Positions 2,049 through 45,345 of a stretch of DNA of 64,000 nt are shown piece by piece. The DNA is taken from positions 589 to 64,588 of the forward strand of contig MHBF01000168.1 of NCBI GenBank assembly GCA_001803225.1, read 5' to 3'. Each line of letters begins with the position of its first letter. Position 1 is the stretch's first letter. A program made the position numbers and the translations under genes. This DNA is from Lentisphaerae bacterium GWF2_44_16. GTDB taxonomy: Bacteria; Verrucomicrobiota; Lentisphaeria; Victivallales; GWF2-45-14. The notes beneath the pieces are model-generated. The model saw nothing but the letters and a program-made list of their open reading frames with translations, was not told the DNA's origin and searched no databases.

Positions 2049-2663
2049 ATGAAAATCAGAATTTCTGGGCCAATCATAGCATTCACTTTGATTGAGTTGC
2101 TCATAACAATATCAATAATAGCGATATTGGCGTCAATGCTTCTGCCGTCTTTGCAAAAGGCGCGGGGAAAAGCAAAGGAACTCAAGTGTGCCGCCAATCT
2201 GAAACAATTGGGCACGGCATTTTTCATGTACGCGGACGAACACGACGGTTACTTACCTGTATCAGGAGGCAGTCCCAACCGTTGGTGTCAGACTTCAATC
2301 CCCCCCTACACCAACGACAAAGGACAAAGAACTCCATTGTATCTTTGTCCTTCGGATTCCTCCAAATACAATCCGACATATTATTCCACAGTGAGCTATG
2401 GCTATAAAATCCCATTGCATGGTAAGAAGTTGTCCAAACAAAACAAACCATCACTTGCTCTGCTTTTATGTGATAACGCTGATACCGGAGATGGAAATAC
2501 TCCTTATGATGTCTCATGGTACTATGCCACCAATGGAATTCTAGCATTGGCGAAACAACGCCATTCGGGAGGGATAAACATCTGTTTCCTTGATGGACAC
2601 ATGAAGTTTTGGAGAACATCTATTCCAACTTCATCCAGCGATGATTTTTGGCTTGCTCAATAA
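2049..2663 (+). CDS. Prepilin-type N-terminal cleavage/methylation domain protein, H-X9-DG family (pseudopilin-like)
   Basis: The N-terminus ...GPIIA|[24 protein letters not shown] is a class III signal with Glu at +5. The C-terminal RH-SGGINICFL-DGH matches the H-X9-DG motif. Confidence 0.85.
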   Translation: MKIRISGPIIAFTLIELLITISIIAILASMLLPSLQKARGKAKELKCAANLKQLGTAFFMYADEHDGYLPVSGGSPNRWCQTSIPPYTNDKGQRTPLYLCPSDSSKYNPTYYSTVSYGYKIPLHGKKLSKQNKPSLALLLCDNADTGDGNTPYDVSWYYATNGILALAKQRHSGGINICFLDGHMKFWRTSIPTSSSDDFWLAQ

Positions 2664-2678
2664 TGGAAAGAAATTAAA

Positions 2679-3743
2679 ATGAATAGCGACAAAAAAAACA
2701 TTTCGATCAAAGACCTTGCCAAAATGGCCGGGGTTTCAACAGCAACCATTTCAAGAGTCATCAATGACGTACCGGGATGCATTGTCAGCCGCCCAAAAAG
2801 AGAAAAAATACTGAAAATCGCCCAAAAGGTTGGTTATCGTCCGAATCGAAGCGCTCGTCTTTTCTCACGTGGAAACAACCGTTGTGAAAGTATTGGAGTA
2901 GTTATATCAGGGACTTCCCTCCAGAATTTCACATGGAGGAGTACGGCATCATTCAGCATAGAATACATTCAGGGAATTTCGGAAGCTCTTAATGAAATAA
3001 ACCATACAATGTCATTTGTTGTAACTCCCACCGGGAACACCGAAGATTTCCTGCGCAGGGAATATCTTTCCGAAAAAAAAGTGGATGGTCTGATTATTTT
3101 CGGCGGGGAAAAAGAGCTTTCAATGGCTTCGGAATTTGAAAAAAACGGCATGCCGGTAGTTTCATTTGATGTAAAAACCGCCCCATTGTTTAATGTCCCG
3201 CTCCTCTTGTTCGACCCGGAACCCGGAATCAGGGAGGCGGTGGAGGCGGTGGAGGCGCGAAAGCATAAAAAAGCGGGCATCGTACATACCGGTGACAATA
3301 AAGGTGGAATGCCGGAAAGAGCCATGCTTTTTGAACGGTTATGCACGGATAAAGGAATAGAAATAGGAGGAAAAAGGTGTATATCCGCATCCGATGAAAC
3401 CGAGTCCTACCTGTCAACAAAAGAACTCATTGAAAAAAATCCCGACATCACATGTATTTTCTATACATCCGACCTTTTTGCGATGCTCGGCATAAGGGCG
3501 TTGCTGTCGATGGGCCTGAGGGTTCCGGATGATGTTTCCGTGATAGGATATGACGATGCACCGTATTCCATCAATTCCCCAGTACCTCTAAGCACTATCA
3601 AGCTTCCCCGTAAAAAAATAGGTGCAAGCGCTGTTAAACTTCTTTTCGGAATTATAAATGGTGAAACGCCCCCAAGCCGTTTCGTTCTCCCATGCCAGTG
3701 GATACAAAGAGAATCTCTAGGAAATAATAAATCAATGGTATAG
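2679..3743 (+). CDS. LacI family transcriptional regulator
   Basis: The N-terminal HTH is ISIKDLAKMAGVSTATISRVINDVPG. It is followed by a periplasmic-binding-protein-like domain ending in the typical VIGYDD / PLSTIKLP motifs. Confidence 0.9.
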   Translation: MNSDKKNISIKDLAKMAGVSTATISRVINDVPGCIVSRPKREKILKIAQKVGYRPNRSARLFSRGNNRCESIGVVISGTSLQNFTWRSTASFSIEYIQGISEALNEINHTMSFVVTPTGNTEDFLRREYLSEKKVDGLIIFGGEKELSMASEFEKNGMPVVSFDVKTAPLFNVPLLLFDPEPGIREAVEAVEARKHKKAGIVHTGDNKGGMPERAMLFERLCTDKGIEIGGKRCISASDETESYLSTKELIEKNPDITCIFYTSDLFAMLGIRALLSMGLRVPDDVSVIGYDDAPYSINSPVPLSTIKLPRKKIGASAVKLLFGIINGETPPSRFVLPCQWIQRESLGNNKSMV

Positions 3744-4511: not shown

Positions 4512-5699
4512 ATGGATTTTATTTATATGACCCCTATTCATAAAACAATACTAAAGCACATTCTTTTAAATGAGAAAATGTCAAAGTCAACTTTGGCTAA
4601 AGCAATAGGTATGAGTAAAACGAGAATAGGCAAACAAGTCGAGCAAATCATAAATAATGGGTTCCTGCATGAAAATGGATTTTTGCCTGTCAATGGACCT
4701 GGTCGTTTACAAGGATGTCTCGAAATAAATCCAGGCACATTTTACAGTTGCGGCATAAGCATTATCTCTGATTGTATGGAAATAGGCATATTTGACGCTA
4801 AGGTGAATCTTATAAAGAAAAAGCATTATAAAAATCCATTTCTATCAGGGATACACGATGCAAAAGATATTGATAATGCCTTAACAAATATTTCTGAATT
4901 ATTTTATTCTTTTCTTAGAGAAATAAATTTTGATAAAAATAAGATTTGTGTTGTAGGGTTTTCTCTACCGGGAATAATCAATACACATTCAGGGGTAATA
5001 TTAAGGAGTCCTTTTTTTCCAGGCATAAAAGAATATCCTATAGGTAAAAAACTTTCGGATAAAGTAAATATTCCGGTAATAATAGAAGATTTTCACAAAG
5101 CCAAGACTTATTTTGAATATCACCGTGGCGCAGGCAGGGGAAGTAAAAACATGCTGTATATAAGCAGCCGGTCCGGAACATTTGGCATAATCATTAATGG
5201 AGAACTTTTTTATGGTTCCGGATATCGCGCGGGACAGACAAGCGCTTTTGTAATAGATCCGCAAGGCCCTATGTCTGACTGGGGAATTAAAGGGACATTG
5301 GGATCTTATTTCTCGATTCCAGCTTTTTTAAAACAAATAGAACAAATACCAATTTCACAGGAAACTGCTCACCTAAAAAATATAGTTACAGAAGAACATC
5401 TTAAGAAAATGTTTATTTCCGGAGAACTGGTTACATGTCAAATAATCCGTGAAGCATCCGTTTATTTGGGAAAGGCGCTATGTAATTTAATGACATTACT
5501 TCCGGTTGATGTGATAATGATAGACCACTGGCTGTCCAGTCATCCTGAATGCTGCATAGATATTATCAATCAGGAACTGCAAAGATATGTGTTAGCAAGC
5601 ATCGGACCTGAGATTAAAATTCAGGCGAGCAAATTTGAAGTTGATAATTATCCTTTACATATTGCGTACTTAGCTTCAGTAAGATATTTTGAAACATAA
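4512..5699 (+). CDS. ROK family transcriptional regulator (NagC/XylR-like)
   Basis: The N-terminal winged-HTH region is ILKHILLNEKMSKSTLAKAIGMSKTRIGKQVEQIINNGFL, followed by a ROK sugar-kinase-like fold (GFSLPGIINTHSG..., GRGSKNMLYIS...GIIINGELFYGSG). The gene is visibly AT-rich. Confidence 0.8.
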   Translation: MDFIYMTPIHKTILKHILLNEKMSKSTLAKAIGMSKTRIGKQVEQIINNGFLHENGFLPVNGPGRLQGCLEINPGTFYSCGISIISDCMEIGIFDAKVNLIKKKHYKNPFLSGIHDAKDIDNALTNISELFYSFLREINFDKNKICVVGFSLPGIINTHSGVILRSPFFPGIKEYPIGKKLSDKVNIPVIIEDFHKAKTYFEYHRGAGRGSKNMLYISSRSGTFGIIINGELFYGSGYRAGQTSAFVIDPQGPMSDWGIKGTLGSYFSIPAFLKQIEQIPISQETAHLKNIVTEEHLKKMFISGELVTCQIIREASVYLGKALCNLMTLLPVDVIMIDHWLSSHPECCIDIINQELQRYVLASIGPEIKIQASKFEVDNYPLHIAYLASVRYFET

Positions 5700-5816: not shown

Positions 5817-6437
5817 ATGGTTATAAAATTCAAAGAGAGGGTCAGAATCAGATTTATTTTCACGATGATAGAACTCCTGATGGTTATAGCGATTATTACA
5901 ATTCTTTCAGCGGTTTTGTTACCAGCCTTAAGTAAAGCAAGAGATAAATCCAAAGAACTGCTCTGCAGAAGTAATTTAAAACAAATTGGAGCCGGTATAT
6001 ACAATTATGCCAATGACTTTAGCGATTTTACCTATCCCGGTACGCCCCAATCCACTTGTACAGGTATAAATGACTGGATAAATGACAAAGTCAAAAACTG
6101 GTACGATAACAAGCTATGGCAATGCCCTTCCGTCAAAAAATCAGGAACCCCATATATTTCCTATGCGGCTTCCTATGGAGAATATATGGATTACATAGAA
6201 AACTATTATGGAAGAGGATTAAAATTATTTAAGCTGAATCCCCGAAAAGTTCTTTTCTGCGACAAGACGGAGCATCTTGTGGTAGAAGTTTTCTCAAGCG
6301 ACTCCCAGATGCCGACGGGAAGCAGTCCCAGAATATCAATGAGGCATAACCAGGGGACGAATTGCCTGTATGTCGACGGACATGTTGAATGGTTACGTTA
6401 CAATTTATTGAATATGAATACATTAAATCCTAATTAG
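5817..6437 (+). CDS. Prepilin-type N-terminal domain protein, H-X9-DG family
   Basis: FIFTMIELLMVIAIITILSAVLLPALSKARDKSKELLCRSNLKQIG; C-terminal RH-NQGTNCLYV-DGH. An AAAGGAG SD lies 7 nt upstream. Confidence 0.85.
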   Translation: MVIKFKERVRIRFIFTMIELLMVIAIITILSAVLLPALSKARDKSKELLCRSNLKQIGAGIYNYANDFSDFTYPGTPQSTCTGINDWINDKVKNWYDNKLWQCPSVKKSGTPYISYAASYGEYMDYIENYYGRGLKLFKLNPRKVLFCDKTEHLVVEVFSSDSQMPTGSSPRISMRHNQGTNCLYVDGHVEWLRYNLLNMNTLNPN

Positions 6438-6449: not shown

Positions 6450-8909
6450 ATGAAATTATTATCATGTGCGGCTGTGTCACTTTTTATTCTATTGAACAAT
6501 TCATACGCAGAGATGCCGAAGAAAAATAATATTGTCAAAAATCCAGGATTTGAAGACAGCTGGAGCGAATGGAAAAAAATTGGAGAAAACGAGTGCTGGA
6601 ATATTTCAGAAGCAGAACACCATTCAGGAAAGAAAAGTCTTTACTGGAAAGGTACAAGCGCCAGTGAATATGTTTTTATCGCACAGGATATACCATGTCC
6701 ATTGAATGAGAGTTCACGATTTGTTGTATGGGTGAAAACCAAAGACCTTAAACCAGCCCAGAATGGGGGAGGTGTCTCGTTCGCAATTCAATACTATGCG
6801 GGAGGAAAATACATTGGAGGATCATTCAAAAATCCACAGCTTTCCGGCACAAATGACTGGACAAAGCTGGAATGTGACATTATGCCTGTCGAGAATTATT
6901 TTGGTAAAATTGAACGGGTAGAGTTCGTTTTGTATGTTCCCACCCTGTGTTCAGGCGAAGCTTGGATTGATGATATTGAAGTATACAAGGAAGAACCCAA
7001 ACACGAACCGCTGGAAATTACAGTAATAAAGCCTTTTTACCGGAATATTATTGTAGGCAATGAACCTCTTCAAATCAATTTTGCAACAAATGTCCGGAAA
7101 AAAGACAATGAAACGTTAAGCCTCAAGCTTAAAGCGGATTTTTCTGACGCTTCTGGAAAACTGGTTGAAAGCAAAACAGTCAATGACAAAACCCTCGAAA
7201 AAATGAACGGCATATTGGATTTCAAATCTTTGCCGTCCGGTAAAGCCTCTTACAAATTACAGGTGAGCCTAATAAATAAGGATACTGATGTTATCGCGTC
7301 AAAAACTTTTCAGTTTGAAAAGGTGGATTCACTGCCTGAAAACTTCTTCCATCTGTCCGAGACAGGAGTACCGCTTGTCAATGGCAAGTCATTTTTAATG
7401 TGGGGCTATACGGGGCTTTCAAATAGTGATAATTTCCCATATCTGGAAGATAAACTGGATAATGAAAAAGATAGAATGACAAATTTTGCGATGTCATGGA
7501 ACGTTCATAAACGGGATGACGCTTCAATAAAAAGTTATCTGGACAAACTTGATTCATTAGGTATGAAAGCTGTTTTAATTCCTACCGTCAATGAAAAACC
7601 AAGTGTAGAATTTATCAATAAATGGAAAACACATCCGGCCCTTTTGGGGTGGTTTCTCTGTGATGAACCTGAAAACACTCAGGTACCACTGCAGGACCTT
7701 GTTAAAAAATATGAAACTATTAAAAAGGCAGACCCTGAACATCCTGTTATAATCGATTGCTGTACACCGGAAGGAATTTTGAAATACGCATCGGCATGCG
7801 ACATTATGACAACCGATCCGTACCCCGGATTTTTCAAAGGAGCAGGTTCCCGTAAACCTATAACTGTAGTTACCGAAAATATTAACGCAATAATAAAAAG
7901 TGGGAAGAGTCCATGCTGGATAATCCCACAGGCCTTTTCATGGGAGTATTTCGGATCTCATGAAGATCGCTATCCCAATTTCACGGAACTGCGCAATATG
8001 ATTTATCAAACCTATATCGCGGGAGCTAAGGGAGTGATGTGGTATGGATATGCTTTCTCTCGTAACAATAACGATCTGCTGCTAGGGATTCCTTTTCTCG
8101 GAAAAGAGTCATTCCTTATTGCCGATGCGGTTTTGGCGGAAGACATCAAGGGAAGTGTATCTTCAGACAATCCTGCGATTTTATATTCCCTGAGAAAAAC
8201 AGACAAAGGGCTTTTCCTGTTTGCGGTAAATACTAAATGGGAAAAACAGAACGTTCATTTTTCTCTTAGCAGACCGCCTTTCGCTGACTCAGACTTGAAT
8301 GTTATTTCCGAAGGACGGAAAGTATTGATAAAGGATGGAAAATTCAGGGATGAATTCGGCCCGTTCGAGACTCATCTCTACACGACAAATGAAAAAGATG
8401 CCTCAACATACAGTGTTAAAAACATATTGGGACAAATTGATGATGCCACTAAAAAACTGCTCAAAAAAGGAAATATTGCTCACCAATCAACGGGAAGTAA
8501 AGTAACTGCTTCCTCTGCCTGTGTAAGATCGAAAAAAGCAGTGAATGTATACCTTTCCTGTGTAATTGACGGTTTTTGCGGCAAAGACACTTTCCTTTGG
8601 TTGGACAAAACCCCCGGAAAATTCCCGGACTGGCTGCAAGTAACTTTCCCTAAAGTTCAAAAAATAAATAAAGTAATTGTCTATACCACGGATTTGAAGG
8701 ATTGGGATGTTCAGGTACTGAAAAATGGAGAATGGACTACTGTCGCTCAGGTCAGCGGCAATTCTTCTTATGCCAGAGAGTCTGTATTTGAACCTGTTGA
8801 AACAATCGCGGTCAGGCTATATATAACGGCAGCGTCTAAACCGCGATGCGAAGTCGCGGAGATTGAAGTCTATAAAGTTGATATTGATTCTATAGATAAA
8901 AAACAGTAA
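6450..8909 (+). CDS. Secreted multidomain glycosidase-like protein: CBM4_9-like module, TIM-barrel-like core and C-terminal F5/8 type C (discoidin) domain
   Basis: Signal peptide MKLLSCAAVSLFILLNNSYA. CBM-like NPGFEDSWSEW...SGKKSLYW...EAWIDDIEVY. Core motifs GWFLCDEPE, TTDPYP, IPQAFSW..YPNFTELRNM. The C-terminal NIAHQSTGSKVTASS...PDWLQVTFPK...VAEIEVY is typical of discoidin domains. It is a paralogue of 32748-35606. Confidence 0.7.
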   Translation: MKLLSCAAVSLFILLNNSYAEMPKKNNIVKNPGFEDSWSEWKKIGENECWNISEAEHHSGKKSLYWKGTSASEYVFIAQDIPCPLNESSRFVVWVKTKDLKPAQNGGGVSFAIQYYAGGKYIGGSFKNPQLSGTNDWTKLECDIMPVENYFGKIERVEFVLYVPTLCSGEAWIDDIEVYKEEPKHEPLEITVIKPFYRNIIVGNEPLQINFATNVRKKDNETLSLKLKADFSDASGKLVESKTVNDKTLEKMNGILDFKSLPSGKASYKLQVSLINKDTDVIASKTFQFEKVDSLPENFFHLSETGVPLVNGKSFLMWGYTGLSNSDNFPYLEDKLDNEKDRMTNFAMSWNVHKRDDASIKSYLDKLDSLGMKAVLIPTVNEKPSVEFINKWKTHPALLGWFLCDEPENTQVPLQDLVKKYETIKKADPEHPVIIDCCTPEGILKYASACDIMTTDPYPGFFKGAGSRKPITVVTENINAIIKSGKSPCWIIPQAFSWEYFGSHEDRYPNFTELRNMIYQTYIAGAKGVMWYGYAFSRNNNDLLLGIPFLGKESFLIADAVLAEDIKGSVSSDNPAILYSLRKTDKGLFLFAVNTKWEKQNVHFSLSRPPFADSDLNVISEGRKVLIKDGKFRDEFGPFETHLYTTNEKDASTYSVKNILGQIDDATKKLLKKGNIAHQSTGSKVTASSACVRSKKAVNVYLSCVIDGFCGKDTFLWLDKTPGKFPDWLQVTFPKVQKINKVIVYTTDLKDWDVQVLKNGEWTTVAQVSGNSSYARESVFEPVETIAVRLYITAASKPRCEVAEIEVYKVDIDSIDKKQ

Positions 8910-8968: not shown

Positions 8969-10981
8969 ATGAAAAAAACAATATTTTCCAGAGAAACTGT
9001 CAGGATTTATTACGGAGATGCAAAGCTTCGTAACTTCCTTTCATATATGGGGAATAAAATTAAAAATGAGACAGGGCTGAAAATCAGATGTGAACAAAAA
9101 GAGTTGAAGGATAATACAGTGATAATTTCCGACAGGGAAATCTCATTGCCGGCAGGCAATCTGAAGGGGGCTGAAAAGGCAAAAAAAGTGAAATTATCAA
9201 AATACGATTCCTTTTTAATAGATGCCCATGAAACTTCAATTTTGATATCCTCTCTTTCGTATTCGGGACTTCTAAATGGGCTTATCAAATTTTTCCGCCA
9301 GTTTAAAATGTCTTCTGCTGAAGGGAAGAATATTTGTATCAGGGAAACTTATTCCTGCCCGGCCGTGAAAAACAGATTTTACCATATTTGCATGAGCGGG
9401 TCCACCCCAAACATAGAGTCATTTCTGGAACTTATAAGGACAATAAAGCTTTTTGGATATAACGGAATAGTTATTGAGTTTGAAAATAAATTTCCATATA
9501 CTAAAAACAACAGCTTTCTGCATCCTGACCATTACTTATTGGAAGATATAAAAAAGATAAGAGAGACTGCCGTCAATTTTGGAGTTCAGGTTATTCCTCT
9601 TCTGCAATGCCTGGGGCACCTTGAATATCTCCTTAAATATGATGAGTTCAAAGACCTTTGCGAAGTCGAAGGACACATACGGGACGCATGTCCGTTAAAT
9701 GAGTGGACATTTGAAATCTTTAAACAGTTCAGTGAGGAAATACTTGAACAGTTTCCAGAAACAAAATATTTTCACATCGGCGCTGATGAAGTCAGGATAC
9801 TTGGCGAATGCCCGAAATGCAAAAAGTACGAGGGAAAACATGGTAACTATTCGACCTTTACCGCCTACGTGAAAAAGGTTACGGACCACCTGCTGGCAAA
9901 AGGCATTCAGCCAATGATGTGGGATGACATTATCTATCGGCATTATCCTGATGTGAAAATTACAGGGTTATCAGAAAAAACTATAATCGTCAACTGGGAT
10001 TACTGGACGATAAACAGTCAAAAATCAGCAGAACTCATTTACACGCTTGGAAAAACAGGCATTACTGTATCAAAAAAACACCTGTTGGAAATAGAAAAAT
10101 TTCTGTTGGAAGAACAAGATGGTGTGAAGGTCAAATTTGAAGCTACCGGTCTTTTTGAAAACTATGATTGGAAAAACTTGAAGATATATGATTTCATAAA
10201 AACGAAAGATTTTCCAGCTTCAGTAAAAGCTTTTCCTGTCATCGAAATGATAAAAAAAGACGGTTTTATTCCGGCCGGAGCATCCAACGTCCGTAAATCA
10301 CTGGATGGAATAGACAGTCAAAACTTTATACACAGAGTACAGAATAACAAAGCCTGGGGAGAAAAATTGAAAGCGTCAGGAGTTGATTTTTTCATCGCCA
10401 CCTCATGGAGCAGAGGCAATAGCCTGAGGGAACCTGTGTTTAATATGGAACTTATGCTTTACCCCCTCGCGTCAGGCGGATATTTCAGCTGGAATGGAGG
10501 AGGCAGTATTGAAGAATTCAATGTCTTTTTTGAGAACTGGATTTCTTCCGCAAAGGAAAATGTCAAATTAACCATGTCTATATATGAGATGTTTAAGGGA
10601 CTTTCAGCAATAGTATCTCCTGCTTTCAATGAGCTGTTAAAAGAAAACCTGGTAGTCCTTAAAAAATCTAAAACACCATTTTATGAAATGCTTTATCTTT
10701 ATATCCGTGTATTTGTTTTTAACAGGGAATACAATGGCTTTATAAGAATATTGAGAAATATTCTTTACAGAATAGAAATGGAACATGATTATCCCGAAAA
10801 GGAAAAACGTCAGCACCTGGAAAGACTTGAAGAACTAAGGAAAGAAATAGAGAGCATTGAAAAGGAATCAGAAAAAATCATAAAAAAGTATGTTCTTCCC
10901 GCTGACGCGAAGGAATTAACGATTTCTCTTTTTTACTATAAAAAGAAAGAGCTTGAAGGATTTATTGGAGCAGTCAAATAA
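8969..10981 (+). CDS. GH20-like / DUF4838-related glycosidase-like protein, no signal peptide
   Basis: IVIEFENKFPY, VIPLLQCLGHLEYLL and YFHIGADEVRILGECPKC resemble the GH20 H-x-G-G-D-E catalytic strand. The trailing Cys cluster is also seen in the two DUF4838 proteins of this window. The C-terminal ~120 aa are coiled-coil-like (KEKRQHLERLEELRKEIESIEKESEKIIKK). Confidence 0.5.
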   Translation: MKKTIFSRETVRIYYGDAKLRNFLSYMGNKIKNETGLKIRCEQKELKDNTVIISDREISLPAGNLKGAEKAKKVKLSKYDSFLIDAHETSILISSLSYSGLLNGLIKFFRQFKMSSAEGKNICIRETYSCPAVKNRFYHICMSGSTPNIESFLELIRTIKLFGYNGIVIEFENKFPYTKNNSFLHPDHYLLEDIKKIRETAVNFGVQVIPLLQCLGHLEYLLKYDEFKDLCEVEGHIRDACPLNEWTFEIFKQFSEEILEQFPETKYFHIGADEVRILGECPKCKKYEGKHGNYSTFTAYVKKVTDHLLAKGIQPMMWDDIIYRHYPDVKITGLSEKTIIVNWDYWTINSQKSAELIYTLGKTGITVSKKHLLEIEKFLLEEQDGVKVKFEATGLFENYDWKNLKIYDFIKTKDFPASVKAFPVIEMIKKDGFIPAGASNVRKSLDGIDSQNFIHRVQNNKAWGEKLKASGVDFFIATSWSRGNSLREPVFNMELMLYPLASGGYFSWNGGGSIEEFNVFFENWISSAKENVKLTMSIYEMFKGLSAIVSPAFNELLKENLVVLKKSKTPFYEMLYLYIRVFVFNREYNGFIRILRNILYRIEMEHDYPEKEKRQHLERLEELRKEIESIEKESEKIIKKYVLPADAKELTISLFYYKKKELEGFIGAVK

Positions 10982-16686: not shown

Positions 16687-17793
16687 TCAGCGCCAGTTTG
16701 TCATGTCGTGCCTGAGTATTTCATGACGTGAAATGTTCTTGTTTGCCCCGCATGAGCATCTTATTTTCAGAGTAGGAGAGAGCCATATTATTTTATCTTT
16801 TATTTTCCCGGTTCCTTTATTGAGGGCGAGGAATGTTTCCGCCAACTTTTCGCCAATTTCTTTTCCGGGCCAGTCGACGGATGTAAAGGGCACCTCCGTG
16901 GCATTTGAATATATGCTTCCATAGATTGTTACAAACGCGAGGTCTTCCGGTATTTTTATATCGAAAGACGAAATAAGCTCATAAGCCATAATGGCTTCAT
17001 CTTCGTATGACGCGACGGCTGCGGTGGGGGAACCCGAAGCCTTGAAGACTTCTTTTACTTTGGTAATGGTGTACAAGTCGTCTTTAGATAATATCACCTG
17101 GTTTTTTTCAGGAATGCCCGCTTCCTTGCAGGCATCCTTGAAACCCTGGAAGCGAAGGGTTGCCGAGTAGGTGTTCTCTGGAAACCATCCTATGTATGCC
17201 AGTTTTTTATGCCCCAGAGAAATGAGATGCTTTGTCGCGATATAACCGCCCTCTTTCTCGTCAACGAGGAGCTGATATCCGGAAAAACCCTCCAGATAAC
17301 GTTGAACTATTATCACCGGAACGTCTTTTGCGCCATTTGCTATTTCGGTGAATTTTTTCAAGTCTTCCGCTTTTCCAGAGTGCATCAGCGCTATTCCTTG
17401 AGTGCCGGCCTCCAAGGTTTGAGAGACGGCTTTTTCGAGATATTCAAGATTATACTGCACCTGTATTATTGCGCCCAACGCTGAGTTTTCCATAAGCACA
17501 CGGGAATATGCCCTTCCCATTTGCTGATAGAAAAGATCCCTGTATCCTGATATAAAGAGATGAAAAGCGGGCATTGTCCGCTTGATGTCGCCAGAGATGA
17601 AGGTGCCCCTGCCGGCTGTTTTTTTCAACAGCCCCTTTGCCTCCAGATCATTCATAGCTCTTAGCGCGGTAATCCTGGAAACACCGTATTTTTTGCACAG
17701 TTCATTTCCGGTCGGGATTTTATCACCCGGCTTGTATGCCCCACTGCTTATTTTCCGGTATATATCGTTGTAGATTTCTCTGTGCTTTGCCAT
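16687..17793 (-). CDS. AraR-type regulator: GntR-family HTH fused to a LacI/PBP1-like sugar-binding domain
   Basis: N-terminus YNDIYRKISSGAYKPGDKIPTGNELCKKYGVSRITALRAMNDLEAKGLLKKTAGRGTFIS (GntR wHTH). The C-terminal ~270 aa have the periplasmic-binding fold (LAYIGW..., AAVASYEDEAIMA, FTSVDWP). Confidence 0.85.
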   Translation of the reverse strand: MAKHREIYNDIYRKISSGAYKPGDKIPTGNELCKKYGVSRITALRAMNDLEAKGLLKKTAGRGTFISGDIKRTMPAFHLFISGYRDLFYQQMGRAYSRVLMENSALGAIIQVQYNLEYLEKAVSQTLEAGTQGIALMHSGKAEDLKKFTEIANGAKDVPVIIVQRYLEGFSGYQLLVDEKEGGYIATKHLISLGHKKLAYIGWFPENTYSATLRFQGFKDACKEAGIPEKNQVILSKDDLYTITKVKEVFKASGSPTAAVASYEDEAIMAYELISSFDIKIPEDLAFVTIYGSIYSNATEVPFTSVDWPGKEIGEKLAETFLALNKGTGKIKDKIIWLSPTLKIRCSCGANKNISRHEILRHDMTNWR

Positions 17794-32000: not shown

Positions 32001-32729
32001 TTAATCCATGTTACTTGCAAGTACGTATATCTCGTCTTTGTTTAATGCCTTTCCGATTATGTAAAGCTCATCAATCGCTCCAACAAAATTATAGCCACTA
32101 GTTTTACCAGGATAACTTCCTATTACCGTAGTACTTTTTGTAGGCGCTGGAGCTGCATTTACGTATTTTTGTTCAAATACGGGATTACCATCAATGAAGA
32201 TTGTAATTTTACTCCCGTCATTTACAAGAGCAGCGTGAAACCATATTCCCTTTTTGAGAAAGTCTTGCTGGGGAGAACGTATCCTTTCTGTCTTTTCACT
32301 ATCACCCCAGTAGTAACAGATACTTCTCCAACCAGTGTTAAATGAATACCCATTTTTTGCCGTGTCAAATTTGCAGGAAAGTATTGACATCAGTTTGTTT
32401 GTTTTGTCATCCAGCCTTATCCATACACAGATTGTGTATGGAGGTTTGATGTTCAATATCTTCTGTTTGTCCTGTATTATATATTTGACTGGTCTATCTT
32501 TTTTCCAAAGAAGGGCTGAGTTCCTCATTCCTTTTGTCTTTAGCATCTTACAGGTAGTGTCCTTTGTCGTAAGTATAGCATTAAGTTTATTGGGCCCAGA
32601 GTCCACAAGTTCCTTTTCCGTATCATCGTCAAAGTTCCAGTATGCAATTATCGGCAATTGGATTTCCTCTGCACAAACGGAAAAAGAGGTCGTCAATAGG
32701 ATTATCCAGCACCATTTTCTCAAAAGCAT
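32001..32729 (-). CDS. Secreted LamG / concanavalin-A-like lectin domain protein
   Basis: Signal peptide MLLRKWCWIILLTTSFSVCA. YWNFDDD...LVDSGPN, WFHAALVNDGSKITIFIDGNPV and GAIDELYIIGKALNKDEI are typical of Laminin_G_3 domains. Confidence 0.7.
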   Translation of the reverse strand: MLLRKWCWIILLTTSFSVCAEEIQLPIIAYWNFDDDTEKELVDSGPNKLNAILTTKDTTCKMLKTKGMRNSALLWKKDRPVKYIIQDKQKILNIKPPYTICVWIRLDDKTNKLMSILSCKFDTAKNGYSFNTGWRSICYYWGDSEKTERIRSPQQDFLKKGIWFHAALVNDGSKITIFIDGNPVFEQKYVNAAPAPTKSTTVIGSYPGKTSGYNFVGAIDELYIIGKALNKDEIYVLASNMD

Positions 32730-32747: not shown

Positions 32748-35606
32748 TTAATAGATTTCGATTTCGCTTATTGCCACCGAGCCGTTAACCGGGGAAGGGA
32801 AAAAAAAATTTATTTTATCTGTATCAACAGGGGAAAAAACACTCTCGAACTTGCTCTCTGAAACTTTTTTAAATTCTCCTGTTTTTATCCATTTCCCATT
32901 TTTATTTATATGTATTTCAGGATTTTCACTGAATTCATTTTCCGTAAAGACATTAACTTTACCTGTTTTTCTAGTTTCTATAAATTCAAATTCAACCCAT
33001 TGTTTTCCGGGTTTGCCGGCTCTCCAGCCGGCATCGTTGCGTGCGCCATCTCTTAAATGGAATTCAGGCCGTCCTCCTTGGGCACTTGAAAAATTTATTG
33101 TTTTTGCGTCCCTTGCAATATTGCCAGGCCTTATATAAGATTTTTTCAGAGCCTCAATTTCTTTCAATATTTTATTTACGGAAAGTTTTGCGGCTATTTC
33201 TTTATCTGTGGTATATATTTCAGTATCGTAAGTTTCGAACGTATGTTCTATCAGCCCATTTTCTGCTTCTACTGAGCGTTCCTCGGAAAGCACATACCAT
33301 TTTTTGGGCGCATTTTCCCACGGCAGGGTAATTTTTACCTTTTTTTCAGTAGTAGCGTTATTTACCGCTATTATCCAATCGGCCCCGCAAATATTCTTAT
33401 AACACACGGCTTTTACATATTCATCCCCTGTTTTAATTGAAATTCTTTTTGTAGGAGAGAGAATTAGGTCTCTAATGATGTTGGCTTCTTTTCCAAGGAA
33501 CGGGATTCCTAAAACAGTATCAGGATAAGATCTGGTACTCCAGTAGTTAAACCATAGAAATCCTGTGCCTCCTTCAATAACAACCTGATATTGCATGTTT
33601 CTTAGTTCATGAAAATTGGGAGCCCGATTGCTTTTGCTTCGGTCGTTCCTAAAATCGCCATAATTAAAGGCCTGAGGCACAACCCATGCGGTTTTTTTGT
33701 TCTTCCCTGCTTCATGGATTGCCTCTATGAACTTGCCCACCTTTTCTATCGGAGTTCCAGTAAGGCTATTTTCTAAAAAAAGCGGATATGGATCAGGAGT
33801 AAAAATATCCGCGCCGTTAATGTATTTAAAAATTCCCGGTATTGTATCATTCGCCAATGTGCACGGATGATAAGGATCTTCGTCTTTGCATATTTCATAT
33901 ATGGCTTTAATCCTGTCAGGCAAGGCTGGTCTGAGTTCCGGTTCATCCGCTATCATCCACCCCAAAATGGCGGAATGATTTTTCCACTTTTTAACAAAAT
34001 CCCTTATTCCGGTTTTTTCTTTCTCAGACAATGGTCTTGTGAAACTGTCGGTATTGACGTAACATCTTTCAGGATAAGGATATATAAGTGCCTTGATTCC
34101 GTTGTCATGGCATAAATCAAGCCATTCCTTAAGTTCTCTATCAGACTTGAAATATGCATTGTAATCAGCAATTGCATTGCAGCCATTTTTCCCCGCTTCT
34201 CTAATGTTAACACCGCTATACCATCCGTACGCTAAAAACGGTTTGCCATTTATTCTTGTCACAAGATTTTCATCAATTCTTGTTTCACCATCAAATGGAG
34301 GAAGTTTTTTAATCAACAATTCGGTTGAATACAATGTTTTTCCGATATTTTTGAGTTCTGCCACGAGTTTATAATTTCCTTCAGGTAACTCCGGCAAAGG
34401 AAAAGAAAATTCAGTTTCTCTTTTTGTACACGAGATATTTGAAGAGACTAAGATGTTTTCATTTCCAATCACTTTAAGAGCAATAGCAAGATTTTCTATA
34501 TCATCTATTCCGATCTTGATTTTACCTTTTAATGTCGATATTTTCTGCGTTGCGAAAATACAGTTTCTATATGATGGCTCCGTAAGTTCTATAGATATGG
34601 GATTATAAGCAACATCTACGATAAATTGTTTTAGAGCCAAAGCATCCCCAGTTTTTCTGTCATATATTTGAAGCATAATATTGATATTCCCATTGTCTTT
34701 TGCGGGAATACTGAAAGTTAATTCCTTACCGGAATTATTGTCCAGCCCGTTTGTCATTTCTATTGCTTCGTTTCCATTAAGGAATGCCTTAATTTTTATG
34801 AAGTGGTATTTGCCTGTTTTATTCTGCAAATATGTTTTGAAATCAAATTTAATTTCTCCATTTTTTGACAGGGTAAGCATATCATACGGCTCTTTTAGTT
34901 CCCATTTGTATTTTTCAAGGGTTGCGTCTTTCAGATTCAGTTCTGAAAAATTTTCAGGTTGATGGAAATTGCCGCTAAGAGGAGTGAAAGAACTTGATTC
35001 ACATCTTCCTCCCGCATGACGCTGTCTTGTTATATTAAAGCCAAATACATTGTCCTTTCCAAGATCAAAATCCACTAATGGGATTGCTATTTCAAGAGTC
35101 CAATTATCTTTGTTTACTGCCGATGCTACTTTCAGGTCAGAAGAATTCCATGCAGAAGTGCCAACATGCCCACCTTGTCGCCTGACCGCATCGTATACTG
35201 TTCCATTCGGGTTAATGACAAAATGATAATATGAACTTTTGTCTTTGTTCGTATCAAAAAATAATTCAATGCAATCATCACGATAAACCGGTCCATCCCG
35301 CAAAGTATTTTTCTTAACAATCTTTTCAGGAAATGGTTCATCAATAATCATGCCTATATAGATGTTATTACCGTCAGTGCAAATTTTAAATTTTGTCTGG
35401 ATTTCCGCATTTTCCGAAGGTGTCTCCAACATTTTAAAACCTTCATTCCATTTTCCGAGTTTCCAACAATCATCAGTCAAGATACCGTCAAGCACTGGAG
35501 GATTTGATGTTGTTTCCCCAAAAACAGGGATTTTACCTGTTGCCGCAATACCACTACATATACCCCAAACCAACAACACAACTATTCCGGTGAATTTCCT
35601 TGACAT
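32748..35606 (-). CDS. Secreted multidomain glycosidase-like protein: CBM9/DOMON-like N-terminus, TIM-barrel-like core and C-terminal discoidin-like domain
   Basis: Signal peptide MSRKFTGIVVLLVWGICSGIAA. CBM9-like PPVLDGILTDDCW...DDCIELFFD...YYHFVINPNGTVYD. Core GWMIADEPE, TPDPYP, VPQAFNY..APNFHELRNM, paralogous to 6450-8909. C-terminal GNIARDAKTINFSSAQ...KQWVEFEF...ISEIEIY. Confidence 0.7.
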   Translation of the reverse strand: MSRKFTGIVVLLVWGICSGIAATGKIPVFGETTSNPPVLDGILTDDCWKLGKWNEGFKMLETPSENAEIQTKFKICTDGNNIYIGMIIDEPFPEKIVKKNTLRDGPVYRDDCIELFFDTNKDKSSYYHFVINPNGTVYDAVRRQGGHVGTSAWNSSDLKVASAVNKDNWTLEIAIPLVDFDLGKDNVFGFNITRQRHAGGRCESSSFTPLSGNFHQPENFSELNLKDATLEKYKWELKEPYDMLTLSKNGEIKFDFKTYLQNKTGKYHFIKIKAFLNGNEAIEMTNGLDNNSGKELTFSIPAKDNGNINIMLQIYDRKTGDALALKQFIVDVAYNPISIELTEPSYRNCIFATQKISTLKGKIKIGIDDIENLAIALKVIGNENILVSSNISCTKRETEFSFPLPELPEGNYKLVAELKNIGKTLYSTELLIKKLPPFDGETRIDENLVTRINGKPFLAYGWYSGVNIREAGKNGCNAIADYNAYFKSDRELKEWLDLCHDNGIKALIYPYPERCYVNTDSFTRPLSEKEKTGIRDFVKKWKNHSAILGWMIADEPELRPALPDRIKAIYEICKDEDPYHPCTLANDTIPGIFKYINGADIFTPDPYPLFLENSLTGTPIEKVGKFIEAIHEAGKNKKTAWVVPQAFNYGDFRNDRSKSNRAPNFHELRNMQYQVVIEGGTGFLWFNYWSTRSYPDTVLGIPFLGKEANIIRDLILSPTKRISIKTGDEYVKAVCYKNICGADWIIAVNNATTEKKVKITLPWENAPKKWYVLSEERSVEAENGLIEHTFETYDTEIYTTDKEIAAKLSVNKILKEIEALKKSYIRPGNIARDAKTINFSSAQGGRPEFHLRDGARNDAGWRAGKPGKQWVEFEFIETRKTGKVNVFTENEFSENPEIHINKNGKWIKTGEFKKVSESKFESVFSPVDTDKINFFFPSPVNGSVAISEIEIY

Positions 35607-35624: not shown

Positions 35625-36356
35625 TTATTCATTTCCTGTTGCATAGTTAAATCCTTTCCGCAAAAAAGTGCCATCGGCGCCCAGTTCGTCACGTTTTACA
35701 CTTCTGGCATTCATGCCTCCAAAAAGTACATTGGCTGATTTATTATGGTTGGCCCTTAAATGATAGCCTTCATAAAAAGTAGACATAGCACTCCTAACCA
35801 CGGTTATCCCATAACCTTCCACTCTCCCATTGTCAAAAATCAGTGGCGCTTCACTTGGGGTTTGCATCATCTGTAGAGAATGATTTAAATATGAATCTCC
35901 AGTAGTGCTGGTACCCATAAACCAAATATTGCAGGAATAATCTGCATAAGAAAACACTGCACTGTCGGATATAGTCTGCATAGGACACAGGATTCTGTTT
36001 TTTTGCCCGCACCTGCCAATTTTAACCCCATAGTCCAATATGGAATAAGGTCCGTAAGAGCCAAGAAGAAGATACCATGGCTGAATTGCTTCAACTCCGT
36101 TATAATATTTAACATATGGTGGATTTGCATACATTATATTTCCATTAAAATCATTGGCATAACTGCTCAATGCCACGCCTGTCTGTTTCAGGTTTCCCTG
36201 GCATGAAATTGAATGAGCAGTTTCTTTTGCTTTTTTTAGCGATGGAAGCAGTAATGCCGTCAGAATCATGATAATCGTTATCACGATCATGAGTTCTAAT
36301 AAGGTGAAATCTCTATAGTACCTTTGTTTTTCTCTTTTAATTCTCATCTTATCCAA
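35625..36356 (-). CDS. Prepilin-type N-terminal domain protein, degenerate H-X9-DG family member
   Basis: YYRDFTLLELMIVITIIMILTALLLPSLKKAKETAHSISCQGNLKQTG. The C-terminal motif reads NH-NKSANVLFG-GMN, so DG is replaced by GM. There is a 13-nt overlap with the upstream ceramidase-like gene. Confidence 0.8.
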   Translation of the reverse strand: MDKMRIKREKQRYYRDFTLLELMIVITIIMILTALLLPSLKKAKETAHSISCQGNLKQTGVALSSYANDFNGNIMYANPPYVKYYNGVEAIQPWYLLLGSYGPYSILDYGVKIGRCGQKNRILCPMQTISDSAVFSYADYSCNIWFMGTSTTGDSYLNHSLQMMQTPSEAPLIFDNGRVEGYGITVVRSAMSTFYEGYHLRANHNKSANVLFGGMNARSVKRDELGADGTFLRKGFNYATGNE

Positions 36357-39912: not shown

Positions 39913-39917
39913 CTTTC

Positions 39918-40799: not shown

Positions 40800-40815
40800 T
40801 TTTAAAATCCTTTTT

Positions 40816-42087: not shown

Positions 42088-44583
42088 TTAATTTTTGTTG
42101 TCAACAGATTTACTCTTTCTTGGGGTTTCCACTAATCTGACGGGCTTATATATTCCTCCAGCTCCCATCTTGTCATAAACTTTGACTGTTAATATGTTGG
42201 GCAAATTATAGTCTAAATATTTGTCGATCTCTGCATATATAGGCTTATCCCACCCCACATTATGAATCAAAAATTTGCCATTAATCCATACCCATGCTTC
42301 TCCATCAACCCCAGGCATTGATAATATTATGGACTTTCCTTCACAGTCTTTGCTCGTTTTAAAAGAAATCCTGTACCATGCGATGCCATCATAATCATAT
42401 CCTTCGCTTTCCCATGTTTTTCCTATTGCTATTTTTTTCCAAGAAGAATCATCGAAATTGACTTGATTGTAGCCAGCGCCTTCCCCAATGTTTTTAGGAT
42501 CCAGCATGAACGTCCACATTTCACCGGTAAGATCTTTGAGGGTTGCCTTCTCAAACTTTGCTTGCTTAATTAAATTCCCCAGATTATTTTGTATCTTATC
42601 TTTAACAAAACCTGATATCCCCTCGGAGCCTGAATACATAAGCCCCCAGTTTCCCATGTTTTTTTCCGCTTCTTTCAACAAATTTTGACTTGCGCTGTAT
42701 GCTTCTTCTGCTTTTTGTATCTCATGTGTTTTATTATAAGCTCTACTCAACATATCCAGCTTTAGATATTGCTCCGCATATTCATGAGCCTGTATTGCTA
42801 AATTCAAGCGCTGTAAATATTTTTCATCTTGTTTTGCTGATTTATTTTGAGCTTTATTTAAAAAAATTCTTGCCTTTTTCAAAAGCTCGTACGAAAGCCA
42901 GTTGTCGGATTCATTCATGATGGTTTGACTGATAATGTGAGTTTTAGATTCTCTAAGAGCCTCCTCCAAAAAATAGTAATATAACATCATTTCTTCAGCC
43001 ATAGGCCCATAATATCTCGTGAAGTAATCCTTTATAATTGCATTGGGTTCCAAGGCGGCATCCCAGGAAGTTTTAGCGAACACCCAGTAATTCAAGCCAT
43101 TGTATCCAAAATTAGATATGCTACTTTGCCCGTATACGCCTAAAACTTCCGGTTTATTAAAATAGTTCATATTTTTCGCAGTAATTTCCGCCACAGGCCA
43201 AGGAAGCTGTCGGAACATAGTTTTAAAAGTGTAGTAGTAAATGTATATTTTTACATTCTTTTTCCTCCATTCTTCAAAGATTTTTTTAAAGTGTTTATTT
43301 TTTTCGCAATCGCATGAAGCGATTGAATAGCTGTAGCACGCTGGACGATGGTGGCATAATTGTACTAAAACATTGTCTTGTAATGGAAAAGAGGGAGCTC
43401 TTGTATAATTATGATAAGCAGGAGAGTATATGATTTTGTCTGGGAATTTATCTTTTACAATTTTTGCAACTTCATTTACATATCGCCAGACTCTATCTGA
43501 AATAATGGGTTCACTTGGAACATCCTCCCAGTCGGCTTGACCTCTTTGGTTATCCCAAACGCAACACTTCTCGCATTCACACCAATGCCAATTGTCATTG
43601 GGTCCAATGCAAAAGATACTATCTCTGGGATGCGTCTTGAAATAATTCATAGCCTGACTTGCAATATGATTTATGAATTCTGGATTGGAAACACACCTTT
43701 GTACATATGCCCCAGATGTGTCTCTTCTGTCCATACTCTTTATATACGGAAACCAGTCTGGGTACGATTTTGAAAATTTGTCAGGAGAAGAAAGGACATC
43801 GAATGAATGCGTTTTCGTGAAACCACCTAAAAGTCCACCGCCAAGGACGGATAATTTTCTGCCGCGTCCTATTGCAGAATTAAATTTATTTCTTATCAAC
43901 CATTCTTTGCCCATTTCTATTTTTTCCGGTGAGAGATCTGGGGCGTATAGCCCAAAACCTCTTACCTTGAATGAGGGAGTAAAGACAAACAAAAATTTTG
44001 GGAAAACTATTTTTTCTTTTTTTAATAGATCAACTCCAAATTCTGCAGGCATAAAGAATCTAATATCCATAAACCTTTCCAAAAAGTCAACAACTCCAAA
44101 ATAATTTCCATATCCAGCCTTACCTGCAATAATCAGTCTGTTTTTCTCGGAAATAATAGTATATGAATCGTCTGATTTCAGCTTGTTTATCATCTCTTTC
44201 AGCGCATCAGTTAAAAATACAGTTTTACCAATGCAAATAAGAGGTTTAGAGTGGGACGCAAATGCATCTCTCACTATGTTAAACTTTTTATCCGTAATTT
44301 TTCCCAACCAATACGCCAATTCGTTTGCTGAAAGAATTTCAGAACTGTCAGCATTTTGAGGTATTACGATGTCAGCTTGTACGTTTTGGTCAAGAATAGT
44401 TATCTCATCAGGCCCCGTGTATTTTTCATATAAACTGGCCGCTTTCATCTTTTGAGAGACTACTTTCAGGGCGCAGTCTTCAAGTTTGTTATAATCATAT
44501 TTTATACGATCATATGAGTACCCTAGAATAGAAGTACTCGCGCAAAACAATAGGACCAGAATTCTTTTACTTTGGTGAAACAT
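42088..44583 (-). CDS. Secreted DUF4838-type glycosidase-like protein with a C-terminal GH2-N-like (galactose-binding) sugar-binding domain
   Basis: Signal peptide MFHQSKRILVLLFCASTSILG. DUF4838-like core with IGPNDNWHWCECEKC. The C-terminal FDDSSWKKIAIGKTWESEGYDYDGIAWYRISF...SMPGVDGEAWVWINGKF is typical of the GH2 sugar-binding jelly roll. Confidence 0.6.
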   Translation of the reverse strand: MFHQSKRILVLLFCASTSILGYSYDRIKYDYNKLEDCALKVVSQKMKAASLYEKYTGPDEITILDQNVQADIVIPQNADSSEILSANELAYWLGKITDKKFNIVRDAFASHSKPLICIGKTVFLTDALKEMINKLKSDDSYTIISEKNRLIIAGKAGYGNYFGVVDFLERFMDIRFFMPAEFGVDLLKKEKIVFPKFLFVFTPSFKVRGFGLYAPDLSPEKIEMGKEWLIRNKFNSAIGRGRKLSVLGGGLLGGFTKTHSFDVLSSPDKFSKSYPDWFPYIKSMDRRDTSGAYVQRCVSNPEFINHIASQAMNYFKTHPRDSIFCIGPNDNWHWCECEKCCVWDNQRGQADWEDVPSEPIISDRVWRYVNEVAKIVKDKFPDKIIYSPAYHNYTRAPSFPLQDNVLVQLCHHRPACYSYSIASCDCEKNKHFKKIFEEWRKKNVKIYIYYYTFKTMFRQLPWPVAEITAKNMNYFNKPEVLGVYGQSSISNFGYNGLNYWVFAKTSWDAALEPNAIIKDYFTRYYGPMAEEMMLYYYFLEEALRESKTHIISQTIMNESDNWLSYELLKKARIFLNKAQNKSAKQDEKYLQRLNLAIQAHEYAEQYLKLDMLSRAYNKTHEIQKAEEAYSASQNLLKEAEKNMGNWGLMYSGSEGISGFVKDKIQNNLGNLIKQAKFEKATLKDLTGEMWTFMLDPKNIGEGAGYNQVNFDDSSWKKIAIGKTWESEGYDYDGIAWYRISFKTSKDCEGKSIILSMPGVDGEAWVWINGKFLIHNVGWDKPIYAEIDKYLDYNLPNILTVKVYDKMGAGGIYKPVRLVETPRKSKSVDNKN

Positions 44584-44598
44584 AATAAAACCTTTCTT

Positions 44599-45345
44599 TT
44601 AAAATCTATCCCAGATATTTCCAGAAGAACCTTCCGTATGGTCTGAAAATATATTGTTCTCATATGCGGCAGGCCCAAATCCCATGCGTTCGGAAGACGC
44701 ATGCCCGTCAATCCATAAAATGTTGCCTGAACCTGAATGGCGTGGATATAGAAAAGCTCTTGTTGTTCCAGTTTCAAACTTACCTTCCAACTGTATATAA
44801 CCGGTGTCCGTTATCCATTCATCAGTATTCGTGTTCAACGCAACATCTGCCAGTAGTACTGTGGAGGACGGCCTTATTATCTGAGAAATTCTTGCTGGTT
44901 GAGCTGGTGCTGCTGTTCCAATATATTTGTAATTATAACCATAATCAGGATAAGGCCAGTTGACATTATTGATCGAGGCTGACTCAGTTCCAGTTTTCCA
45001 AAAAATTTCTCTCGCGATACGAGAACTTGTTCTCTTAAGCGAAGGACACAAAAAAGATGTTCCTTTTGCATATTCATTTTTAACAAGGCATGAAGTTGCA
45101 AAGTATCGATTTCCAACGGGTCCATAATAGTAAGGTGGGTAATAGCCTTCTTGAACATCCTGAACATACAATGAAAATGAAGCCCCCAATTGCTTAAAAT
45201 TTCCGATGCACACTATTCTCCTTGAGATTTCTTTTGCACCTTGAAGGGCTGGCAATAAGAGACCTGCTAAAGTAGCTATAATTGCAATCACTATAAGCAA
45301 TTCTAGAAGCGTAAATGCTGTGTTTATATTTCTGGAAATATGCAT
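44599..45345 (-). CDS. Prepilin-type N-terminal domain protein, H-X9-DG family
   Basis: [54 protein letters not shown]; [14 protein letters not shown]. Start placed at the internal ATG 45345 because the track ORF extends to 45597 with an implausibly long leader. Confidence 0.8.

Follow-up and report, generated by a model that had tools for sequence, protein, structure and literature searches.

Two described arrangements combine a pilin module with a large ligand-binding module, and both resemble the genes considered here in that respect. Modular pilins carry a lectin (PF13385) or another module, as in S. sanguinis, where PilB has a vWA module and PilC a ConA-like lectin (PMC8179133), and the PilC/PilY1 proteins are large, separate, Sec-exported proteins whose genes lie next to those of minor pilins and which attach to the pilin by beta-strand complementation (PMC12918778). 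In Akkermansia muciniphila, a member of the Planctomycetota-Verrucomicrobiota-Chlamydiota (PVC) group, pili genes are needed for mucin uptake (PMC12418764; bioRxiv 10.1101/2024.03.27.586211). The H-X9-DG/DUF1559 family of pilin-like proteins, found mainly in Planctomycetota, Verrucomicrobiota, and Lentisphaerota, is among the larger protein families without a known function, and single genomes contain dozens of its paralogues: 68 DUF1559 paralogues are counted in Planctopirus limnophila, where two are essential (PMC10632474), and 74 in R. baltica, of which some respond to stress, in a paper that terms the domain a solute-binding family (PMC2754498). Here we describe eight members of this family in a 64,000-nt stretch of DNA from Lentisphaerae bacterium GWF2_44_16 (contig MHBF01000168.1, positions 589 to 64,588; the full stretch is hereafter called the window), where they form part of a gene module, consisting of a sugar regulator, one to four pilin-like genes, and a large protein with a signal peptide, that recurs in other Lentisphaerota.

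The window covers nearly all of a 64.5-kb contig from a groundwater metagenome. Open reading frames (ORFs) were confirmed for all eight genes that the original prediction had listed. Copies 1 to 6 lie on the plus strand at 2049..2663 (204 aa), 5817..6437 (206 aa), 21631..22395 (alternative start 21568), 22429..23121 (230 aa), 23138..23836 (alternative start 23081), and 23859..24551 (230 aa), and copies 7 and 8 lie on the minus strand at 35625..36356 (243 aa) and 44599..45345 (248 aa; Met at 45345, in an ORF that runs to 45597). The type IV pilin-like N-terminus ascribed to them is present, i.e., F1, E5, and P22 (counted from the residue after the leader) are found in 8/8 copies, with the correction that the leader end is not fully canonical, as discussed below. 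The H-X9-DG motif, said to occur in all but one of the copies, is found literally in seven, near the C-terminus and with a His after it; copy 7 is the exception, its motif region being HNKSANVLFGGM, i.e., H-X9-GG rather than H-X9-DG. Eight pilin-like genes within 45 kb is well beyond chance.

The copies were compared to curated profile models, and the support obtained this way is weaker than the literal motif would imply. GspG, ComGC, and PilA models match the N-terminal part or helix of all eight; TIGR02532 lists six of the copies, including copy 1, and PF07963 lists four, with copies 4 and 7 in neither. For TIGR04294, with its cut-off of 19 bits, only copies 1 (19.2 bits) and 2 (24.3 bits) score above the threshold, copy 3 falls just under it (18.2 bits), and copies 4, 5, 6, and 8 have no reported match at E<=0.01. 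PF07596 (gathering score 23.3 bits) is passed by copies 1 to 3 only (39.8, 25.4, and 28.7 bits), copies 4, 7, and 8 are under the cut-off, no match was found for copies 5 and 6, and the matches that exist cover merely the first 30-50 of 268 profile positions. Thus, window copies 4-8 pass neither of these two models and copy 7 lacks the DG, yet the copies share with TIGR04294/PF07596 proteins the pilin-type helix, a Cys at about +36, N-x-K-Q, a second Cys followed by Pro, and the C-terminal H-X9-DG-H hairpin. The eight genes are members of the annotated but uncharacterised H-X9-DG/DUF1559 family, and to that extent they are already known and do not represent a new kind of gene. Homologues are named in sources as prepilin-type N-terminal cleavage/methylation domain-containing proteins/prepilin-type processing-associated H-X9-DG proteins, as DUF1559 domain-containing proteins, or as type II secretion system (T2SS) proteins, and a 39-member profile retrieved 59,240 clusters at 50% identity at E<=1e-30 and 250,664 at E<=1e-10. 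In keeping with the original prediction, which had stated that the family is not known to have an experimentally defined role, no functional study was found in the literature searched on H-X9-DG, on DUF1559, and on prepilins and pseudopilins of Lentisphaerae, Kiritimatiellota, and Victivallales.

An alignment of 94 members shows the following positions as invariant or nearly so: F1, E5, P22, a Cys at about +36, N-x-K-Q, a Tyr, a second Cys followed by Pro, and His...Asp-Gly-His. F1 and E5 are invariant in 39/39 homology-gathered sequences. Among the 86 pilin-like ORFs of the loci from other genomes described below, P22 is kept in 86/86 and the first Cys in 85/86; Glu5 was built into the search pattern for this set and therefore cannot serve as separate evidence in it. 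The nearest relatives of copy 2 in a species-representative collection come from several Victivallales/Lentisphaeria genomes and are 30-36% identical to it over most of the protein, which, together with the leader ends discussed below, suggests a Lentisphaerota organism as the source. Within the window, the tandem set at 22429-24551 contains the closest pair, with copies 5 and 6 being 73% identical (a tandem duplicate) and copy 4 being 45-47% identical to both; the other paralogues of the window are about 30% identical to one another. Copies 4-6 have conserved both termini, and their divergence lies mostly in the middle of the head.

The original prediction had placed each gene in an operon with large secreted glycosidase-like or lectin-like proteins and a regulator, and the neighbours are as claimed in the five loci of the window. 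Copy 1 is preceded, at a distance of 38 nt, by the gene of a predicted exported BNR/sortilin-Vps10 repeat protein (43..2010, plus strand; 789 aa in full, the gene being cut by the window start), whose signal-peptide-like N-terminus was read from the contig sequence beyond the window start, and is followed after 15 nt by a LacI-family regulator (2679..3743, plus strand). Copy 2 lies downstream of a ROK-family protein (4512..5699, plus strand), with a predicted exported CBM4_9 + F5/8 type C protein (6450..8909, plus strand, 819 aa) beginning 12 nt 3' of it and a GH20-like protein (8969..10981, plus strand, 670 aa) as the second gene on that side. Copies 3-6 belong to an operon that encodes, in order, a GFO protein, an M20 protein, a racemase, the four pilin-like proteins, a beta-eliminating lyase, and a predicted exported CBM4_9 + GH42-like protein of 1911 aa (25645..31380, plus strand), so that one lyase gene intervenes between the pilin-like genes and the latter; the regulator, divergent from the operon, combines a GntR helix-turn-helix with a periplasmic-binding fold (AraR-type; 16687..17793, minus strand). 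Copy 8 follows a ROK-family gene (46931..48091, minus strand) and a LacI-family gene (45663..46670, minus strand), the latter directly upstream of it, and precedes by 15 nt a predicted exported DUF4838 (GH20-like) + GH2_N protein (42088..44583, minus strand, 831 aa), after which come DegT aminotransferases, GFO oxidoreductases, and a ceramidase-like protein. Copy 7 is located in the same minus-strand cluster, 18 nt ahead of a predicted exported CBM9 protein (32748..35606, minus strand, 952 aa), and the final gene of this cluster encodes a predicted exported Laminin_G_3 (ConA-like lectin) protein of 242 aa (32001..32729, minus strand).

The pilin-like genes are thus separated from their neighbours by only 12-38 nt, and in 5/5 loci a large signal-peptide-like protein is encoded adjoining the pilin-like gene or one gene off. 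By a simple hydrophobicity rule, signal-peptide-like N-termini were found in the products of the genes at 6450, 25645, 32748, 32001, and 42088, and the GH20-like protein was negative. The window also contains an internal control in the form of a DUF4838 paralogue without a signal peptide (56789..58762, plus strand), which is surrounded by genes of cytoplasmic sugar-phosphate enzymes, in a metabolic operon, and does not adjoin any pilin-like gene.

Pfam annotation of all sizeable ORFs in the 64 kb bore out the claim that assembly machinery is not encoded locally: no secretin, T2SS or type IV pilus (T4P) ATPase, platform protein, or prepilin peptidase was found, and there were no gsp genes among the annotated ORFs of the window. 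No SusD/RagB or TonB-dependent receptor matches were found among the window ORFs, and no transporter gene was found among the annotated ORFs of the glycan clusters (1-48100). The comparison of the pilin-like genes to SusD-like markers of Bacteroidota polysaccharide utilization loci can be kept as a positional and logical analogy, in that a non-enzymatic gene marks regulator-linked glycan clusters, but it does not extend to a sequence or fold relationship, nor to a SusC/TonB transporter. The only membrane transporters of the window are encoded in its metabolic region, at 50012-50965 (an EamA protein) and at 54402-55895 (a Na/sulfate-CitMHS-type symporter).

The recurrence of the arrangement was investigated by scanning a genome collection with the family alignment and keeping the best 80 loci, almost all of which come from different species, with a few genomes giving two. 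Neighbours were tabulated by position relative to the pilin-like gene, genes at least four positions away served as background, and Pfam counts for mixed sets cover the top 25 families. Across all phyla, genes at +1 and +2 encode proteins of at least 600 aa in 40/122 cases compared to 20/255 in the background (Fisher p=2.7e-9), and proteins of at least 500 aa with a signal-peptide-like N-terminus in 30/122 compared to 13/255 (Fisher p=1e-7). In the Lentisphaerota loci, the +1 gene has a median product length of 657 aa and reaches 600 aa or more in 16/28 cases versus 11/112 (p=3e-7); products of at least 500 aa with a signal peptide account for 13/28 versus 6/112 (p=7e-7), and products that are both large and carbohydrate-active for 9-11/28 versus at most 4/112 (p=6e-5 to 3e-6). 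In 22/28 of these loci the +1 gene runs in the same direction as the pilin-like gene, and the gap before the +1 gene has a median of 23.5 nt. On the other side, the -1 gene is homologous to the LacI or GntR/periplasmic-binding-fold regulators of the window in 10/32 Lentisphaerota loci versus 3/129 (p=5e-6), and such a regulator is found at -1 in 0/39 loci of other phyla; a Pfam scan of -1 genes from all phyla gave Peripla_BP_3 with GntR, LacI, or AraC heads in 13/69. The positional claim of the original prediction is therefore borne out, and it generalises to the Lentisphaerota loci at both positions: the module of a sugar regulator, one to four pilin-like genes, and a large signal-peptide protein recurs in this phylum, and the placement resembling that of a polysaccharide-utilization marker is a Lentisphaerota habit.

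The 16 large +1 proteins include, per Pfam, heparinase II/III (2), GH42 (2), GH78, DUF4838+CBM9+GH67N, GHL6/10, pectate-lyase-like proteins (1-2), and CBM4_9/CBM9 proteins (1-2); the remainder consist of one DUF6259 protein, one SSF-like protein, and three without a Pfam match. Of the 11 large distant proteins in the background, 10 were scanned and 3 were carbohydrate-active. Individual loci illustrate the pattern: in locus L004, a sigma-54 two-component system and three copies are followed by a GH5-like protein (867 aa); in L005, one copy is followed by a LamG+F5/8C protein (996 aa), with a GH43 gene nearby; and in L094, a LacI gene, one copy, a DUF4838 gene, and a DUF4838+GH2_N gene follow one another, the last of these being the closest known relative of the DUF4838 partner of copy 8. 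Metagenome contigs yielded one 20%-identical relative of this partner, without a pilin-like gene. The one Bacteroidota homologue of this partner that was examined is encoded near two genes with a type IX secretion system sorting domain (Por_Secre_tail), with no pilin-like gene nearby. A search of the 80 loci for T2SS ATPase and platform genes, by Walker motifs and a transmembrane-segment heuristic, gave nothing usable.

In Planctomycetota the partner is of another type. There, the +1 gene is small, encoding 100-220 aa in 11/18 cases, and its product usually has a lipoprotein box (L-x-G-C), as in loci L019, L037, L050, L058, L067, L087, and L090, whereas Lentisphaerota members precede large exported enzymes. 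The claimed placement beside glycosidases thus stands in one part and not in another: the adjacency is real, directional, and statistically strong, but the link follows exported partners and not glycosidases as such, because the signal-peptide-less DUF4838 and GH20 proteins are not directly paired with a pilin-like gene and because the Planctomycetota homologues pair with small lipoproteins. A search for a C-terminal sorting tag shared by the partner proteins found none, apart from a Lys-rich end that was recognised post hoc. We would like to note the latter as a separate observation: a beta-strand-like end with a Lys in the last four residues is present in 15/18 partner proteins compared to 44/150 distant genes, including those at 6450-8909, 25645-31380, and 42088-44583 of the window, but it was noticed before it was tested and is missing from the partners in L004, L005, and L094.

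The leader end sets the Lentisphaerota members apart from those of Planctomycetota and Verrucomicrobiota and breaks a stated rule. Type 4 prepilin leaders are said to end "invariably" in Gly or Ala (PMC10191384), and the residues before F1 in copies 1 to 8 are A, I, V, L, V, A, D, and A, i.e., Gly or Ala is present in three of the eight (copies 1, 6, and 8). The Planctomycetota and Verrucomicrobiota homologues have Gly or Ala at this position in 37/37 cases; in contrast, only 3/38 Lentisphaerota homologues do, the remainder having mostly R, K, S, I, T, P, or N. Either the peptidase of the phylum has a relaxed specificity or the proteins are not cleaved, and the retention of a charged residue inside the membrane helix would speak for proteins that a type-4-filament machine still handles.

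The AlphaFold2 model of copy 2 (39 sequences; predicted local distance difference test score, pLDDT, of 75, with low-confidence loops) resembles a lollipop, with a helix at 3-67 and four short strands forming a small beta-sheet, and a re-model of the head only with a 94-sequence alignment gave a pLDDT of 72. A search of PDB sequences with the family profile aligned only helix alpha-1, to Thermus thermophilus PilA (6xxd, 4e-15), Myxococcus xanthus PilA (8tj2, 2e-10), and GspG (5wda, 6e-9). With GspG/PulG and these type IVa major pilins, the window copies therefore share an alpha-1 that can be aligned over about 65 residues including F1, E5, and P22, and, as far as the copy 2 model can be trusted, the lollipop shape. 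They differ in that the head is unrelated by sequence or fold search, that the leader end is non-canonical, and that the genes are outside any gsp or pil operon. GspG itself was considered as an identity for the copies and rejected, as the scores are far under the equivalog cut-off of TIGR01710 (88.85 bits) and there is no gsp operon. The modelled head would appear to offer no independent clue to the type of ligand.

We propose, with a probability of roughly 0.4, that each copy is an operon-specific accessory pilin-like subunit which partners the exported protein encoded next to it. The copies would be accessory subunits of a shared type-4-filament machine, T2SS-like or T4P-like, that is encoded elsewhere, and the conserved N-terminal helix with F1, E5, and P22 would, once the leader has been processed, dock into this machine and be assembled into its filament. 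The fast-diverging head, with its two invariant Cys and H-X9-DG hairpin, would pair physically with the exported protein encoded alongside, and the pairing would either aid the passage of that protein across the outer membrane or retain it on the filament or envelope, exposed at the surface, so that glycans could be captured and cleaved at the cell. Such a pair would amount to a modular pilin, or to the minor pilin/PilY1 arrangement, in two-gene form. The genes would be built into sugar-inducible catabolic operons and transcribed together with their neighbours, under a LacI or GntR/periplasmic-binding-fold regulator, sometimes with a ROK protein, and next to a large, presumably Sec-exported protein that binds or cleaves glycans. 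We favour this reading because the pilin-like genes are tightly coupled specifically to the exported member of each operon, because the controls within the window (the signal-peptide-less DUF4838 paralogue and the GH20-like protein) are consistent with it, because the Planctomycetota partner differs yet is still exported, and because there are two precedents in the modular pilins (PMC8179133) and in PilC/PilY1 docking (PMC12918778). A PF13385 protein is also present in the copy 7 operon. No homology to PilY1, PilC, or PilB was shown, the window partners are enzymes and CBM proteins of many families, and docking in the window is putative.

Several points weigh against this proposal. Judging by the leader sequences, cleavage and assembly may not occur in the 5/8 copies and 35/38 Lentisphaerota homologues that end in neither Gly nor Ala. 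Foldseek searches of the PDB gave nothing below E=3 for the full-length model of copy 2, which is moderately confident, and nothing below E=2, including no pilin head, for the head-only model. The tandem occurrence of three or four copies before a single enzyme is unlike what a simple one-to-one adaptor would predict. In a comparison for co-inheritance of the pilin and its enzyme, the L094 pilin was no nearer to copy 8 than to the other copies, at a divergence too high for this to be informative. Homologues also occur in unrelated contexts, i.e., in L011 beside Fic and RHS genes, in L092, and in the phage-like L009. Lastly, the genes of the 80 loci were called by a longest-ORF rule and their signal peptides by a simple heuristic, and both of these are crude.

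Much of the same evidence can be read in other ways. The variable heads might bind glycans directly, making the copies substrate-specific capture subunits on a pseudopilus or pilus that are functionally SusD-like, and retraction of the filament might draw polymer into the periplasm. The same positional data apply to this reading, and the lack of a transporter in the glycan operons of the window means that uptake must rely on something encoded elsewhere; moreover, pili genes of Akkermansia are required for the accumulation of mucin inside the cell (PMC12418764), lectin-carrying modular pilins exist (PMC8179133), and the Pfam short name of PF07596 is SBP_bac_10, in line with the solute-binding family of the R. 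baltica paper (PMC2754498). The MUL loci of A. muciniphila resemble the present case in that a PVC bacterium has pilus-type genes tied experimentally to glycan acquisition, but each enzyme operon does not have its own pilin there, the MUL loci being dedicated ones, and the likeness drawn is one of role. The head, in turn, has no CBM or lectin signature that could be recognised in model searches and no structural match, the adjacency tracks the exported protein rather than the operon or the glycosidase as such, the pairing in Planctomycetota is with small lipoproteins and away from any obvious glycan context, and the co-encoded partners already carry CBM4_9, CBM9, F5/8C, and LamG modules, next to which a separate binder seems redundant. 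We regard direct glycan capture as a plausible but less likely explanation. The role as a pseudopilus tip that the original prediction had suggested is itself doubtful, since all eight copies retain Glu5, which is missing from the capping subunit of known tip complexes (PMC10191384).

If the leader is instead left uncleaved, the copies could be bitopic inner-membrane proteins with a periplasmic head, serving as anchors, chaperones, or sensors for the co-expressed periplasmic enzyme rather than as parts of a filament. The leader ends described above agree with this, given the Gly/Ala rule of PMC10191384 and the contrast between Lentisphaerota and the two other phyla, as do the lack of assembly genes nearby and the finding of a T2SS F protein in only 1/69 upstream neighbours. 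Nevertheless, the conservation of Glu5 in the homology-gathered sequences and of Pro22 in the 86 ORFs is not what one would expect of a simple membrane anchor and suits proteins still handled by a type-4-filament machine, and a less stringent peptidase in Lentisphaerota could also account for the leader ends. We consider a non-filament role unlikely. It is very improbable that the copies are general-purpose pseudopilin paralogues of a housekeeping T2SS, contributing redundancy or variation with no specific tie to their neighbours. The best named model matches are indeed to GspG, ComGC, and PilA, and some sources label homologues as T2SS proteins, but the matches to GspG are confined to the N-terminal helix and score 20-30 bits, as opposed to a cut-off of 88.85, the genes are outside gsp operons, and their coupling at 12-38 nt to regulators and exported enzymes argues for condition-specific expression. 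Coincidental adjacency has to be considered because pilin-like genes and genes of carbohydrate-active enzymes are both very numerous in Lentisphaerota genomes, and some carbohydrate-active genes do lie far from the pilin-like genes in the same loci. We find such coincidence scarcely credible, given that the enrichment at +1 over genes at least four positions away in the same loci is 12- to 17-fold (p 6e-5 to 3e-7) and that the pattern is directional, being downstream and on the same strand, with short gaps.

In a more far-reaching, tentative, and rather improbable picture, the copies would be interchangeable, substrate-specific filament subunits for glycan foraging, possibly for enzyme display or secretion. 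This would be a PVC counterpart of the SusC/D logic, with each sugar-inducible operon supplying its own adaptor for the enzyme or glycan that it deals with and with a Lentisphaerota peptidase of new specificity that does not need Gly or Ala at -1.

The literature searched appears to contain no description of the recurrent Lentisphaerota module that joins a regulator, a pilin-like gene, and an exported glycan-active protein, for which statistics are given here, of the shift in partner type between phyla, or of the phylum-wide loss of the canonical leader end. PVC bacteria lack SusC/D, and the ways in which they capture complex glycans, secrete proteins towards them, and import them are the wider question behind these genes. 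A reproducible module gives the H-X9-DG/DUF1559 family a concrete, testable role in polysaccharide use. The module is also a practical marker for glycan-utilisation loci in Lentisphaerota genomes, and relatives are found in two culturable or genetically tractable organisms, Victivallis vadensis and A. muciniphila, an H-X9-DG homologue of the latter being in locus L036. That a whole lineage has lost the Gly/Ala leader end is also relevant to how type 4 prepilins are currently defined.

Regulatory signals were also searched for in the window. A promoter and terminator scan of 31.3-48.3 kb gave counts equal to the shuffled expectation, no operator palindromes were found upstream of copies 2 and 8, and the sole RNA run from the sample is tiny and contains none of this sequence. 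A perfect hairpin with a 12-bp stem (CCTGAAAAAATT..GATTTTTTCAGG) is present at 45388-45415, in the interval that separates the LacI gene from the probable start of copy 8, and could be the terminator of the regulator gene or an operator.

Further observations concern other genes of the window and of the loci from other genomes. The ceramidase-like proteins, which resemble the N-terminal part of neutral/alkaline ceramidase, occur as two paralogues together with DegT, GFO/IDH/MocA, and xylose-isomerase-like TIM barrel genes (11299-12621, 12618-14495, 36344-37663, and 37650-42021, all on the minus strand), and this group looks like an unassigned pathway for amino sugars or keto sugars that is joined to the glycan clusters. 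At 55916-59769, the signal-peptide-less DUF4838 (GH20-like) gene splits the genes for the N- and C-terminal halves of a transketolase, which is an odd insertion. In L009 (GCA_040384165.1, JAWVHB010000800.1), the H-X9-DG homologue P0036 and an HXXSHH/DUF1552 gene at 8636-10741 form the only plus-strand pair in a phage-like block that contains YopX, RNA ligase, NAMPT, NadA, and NUDIX genes and dozens of small ORFs, possibly a phage with a pilin-like gene from its PVC host.

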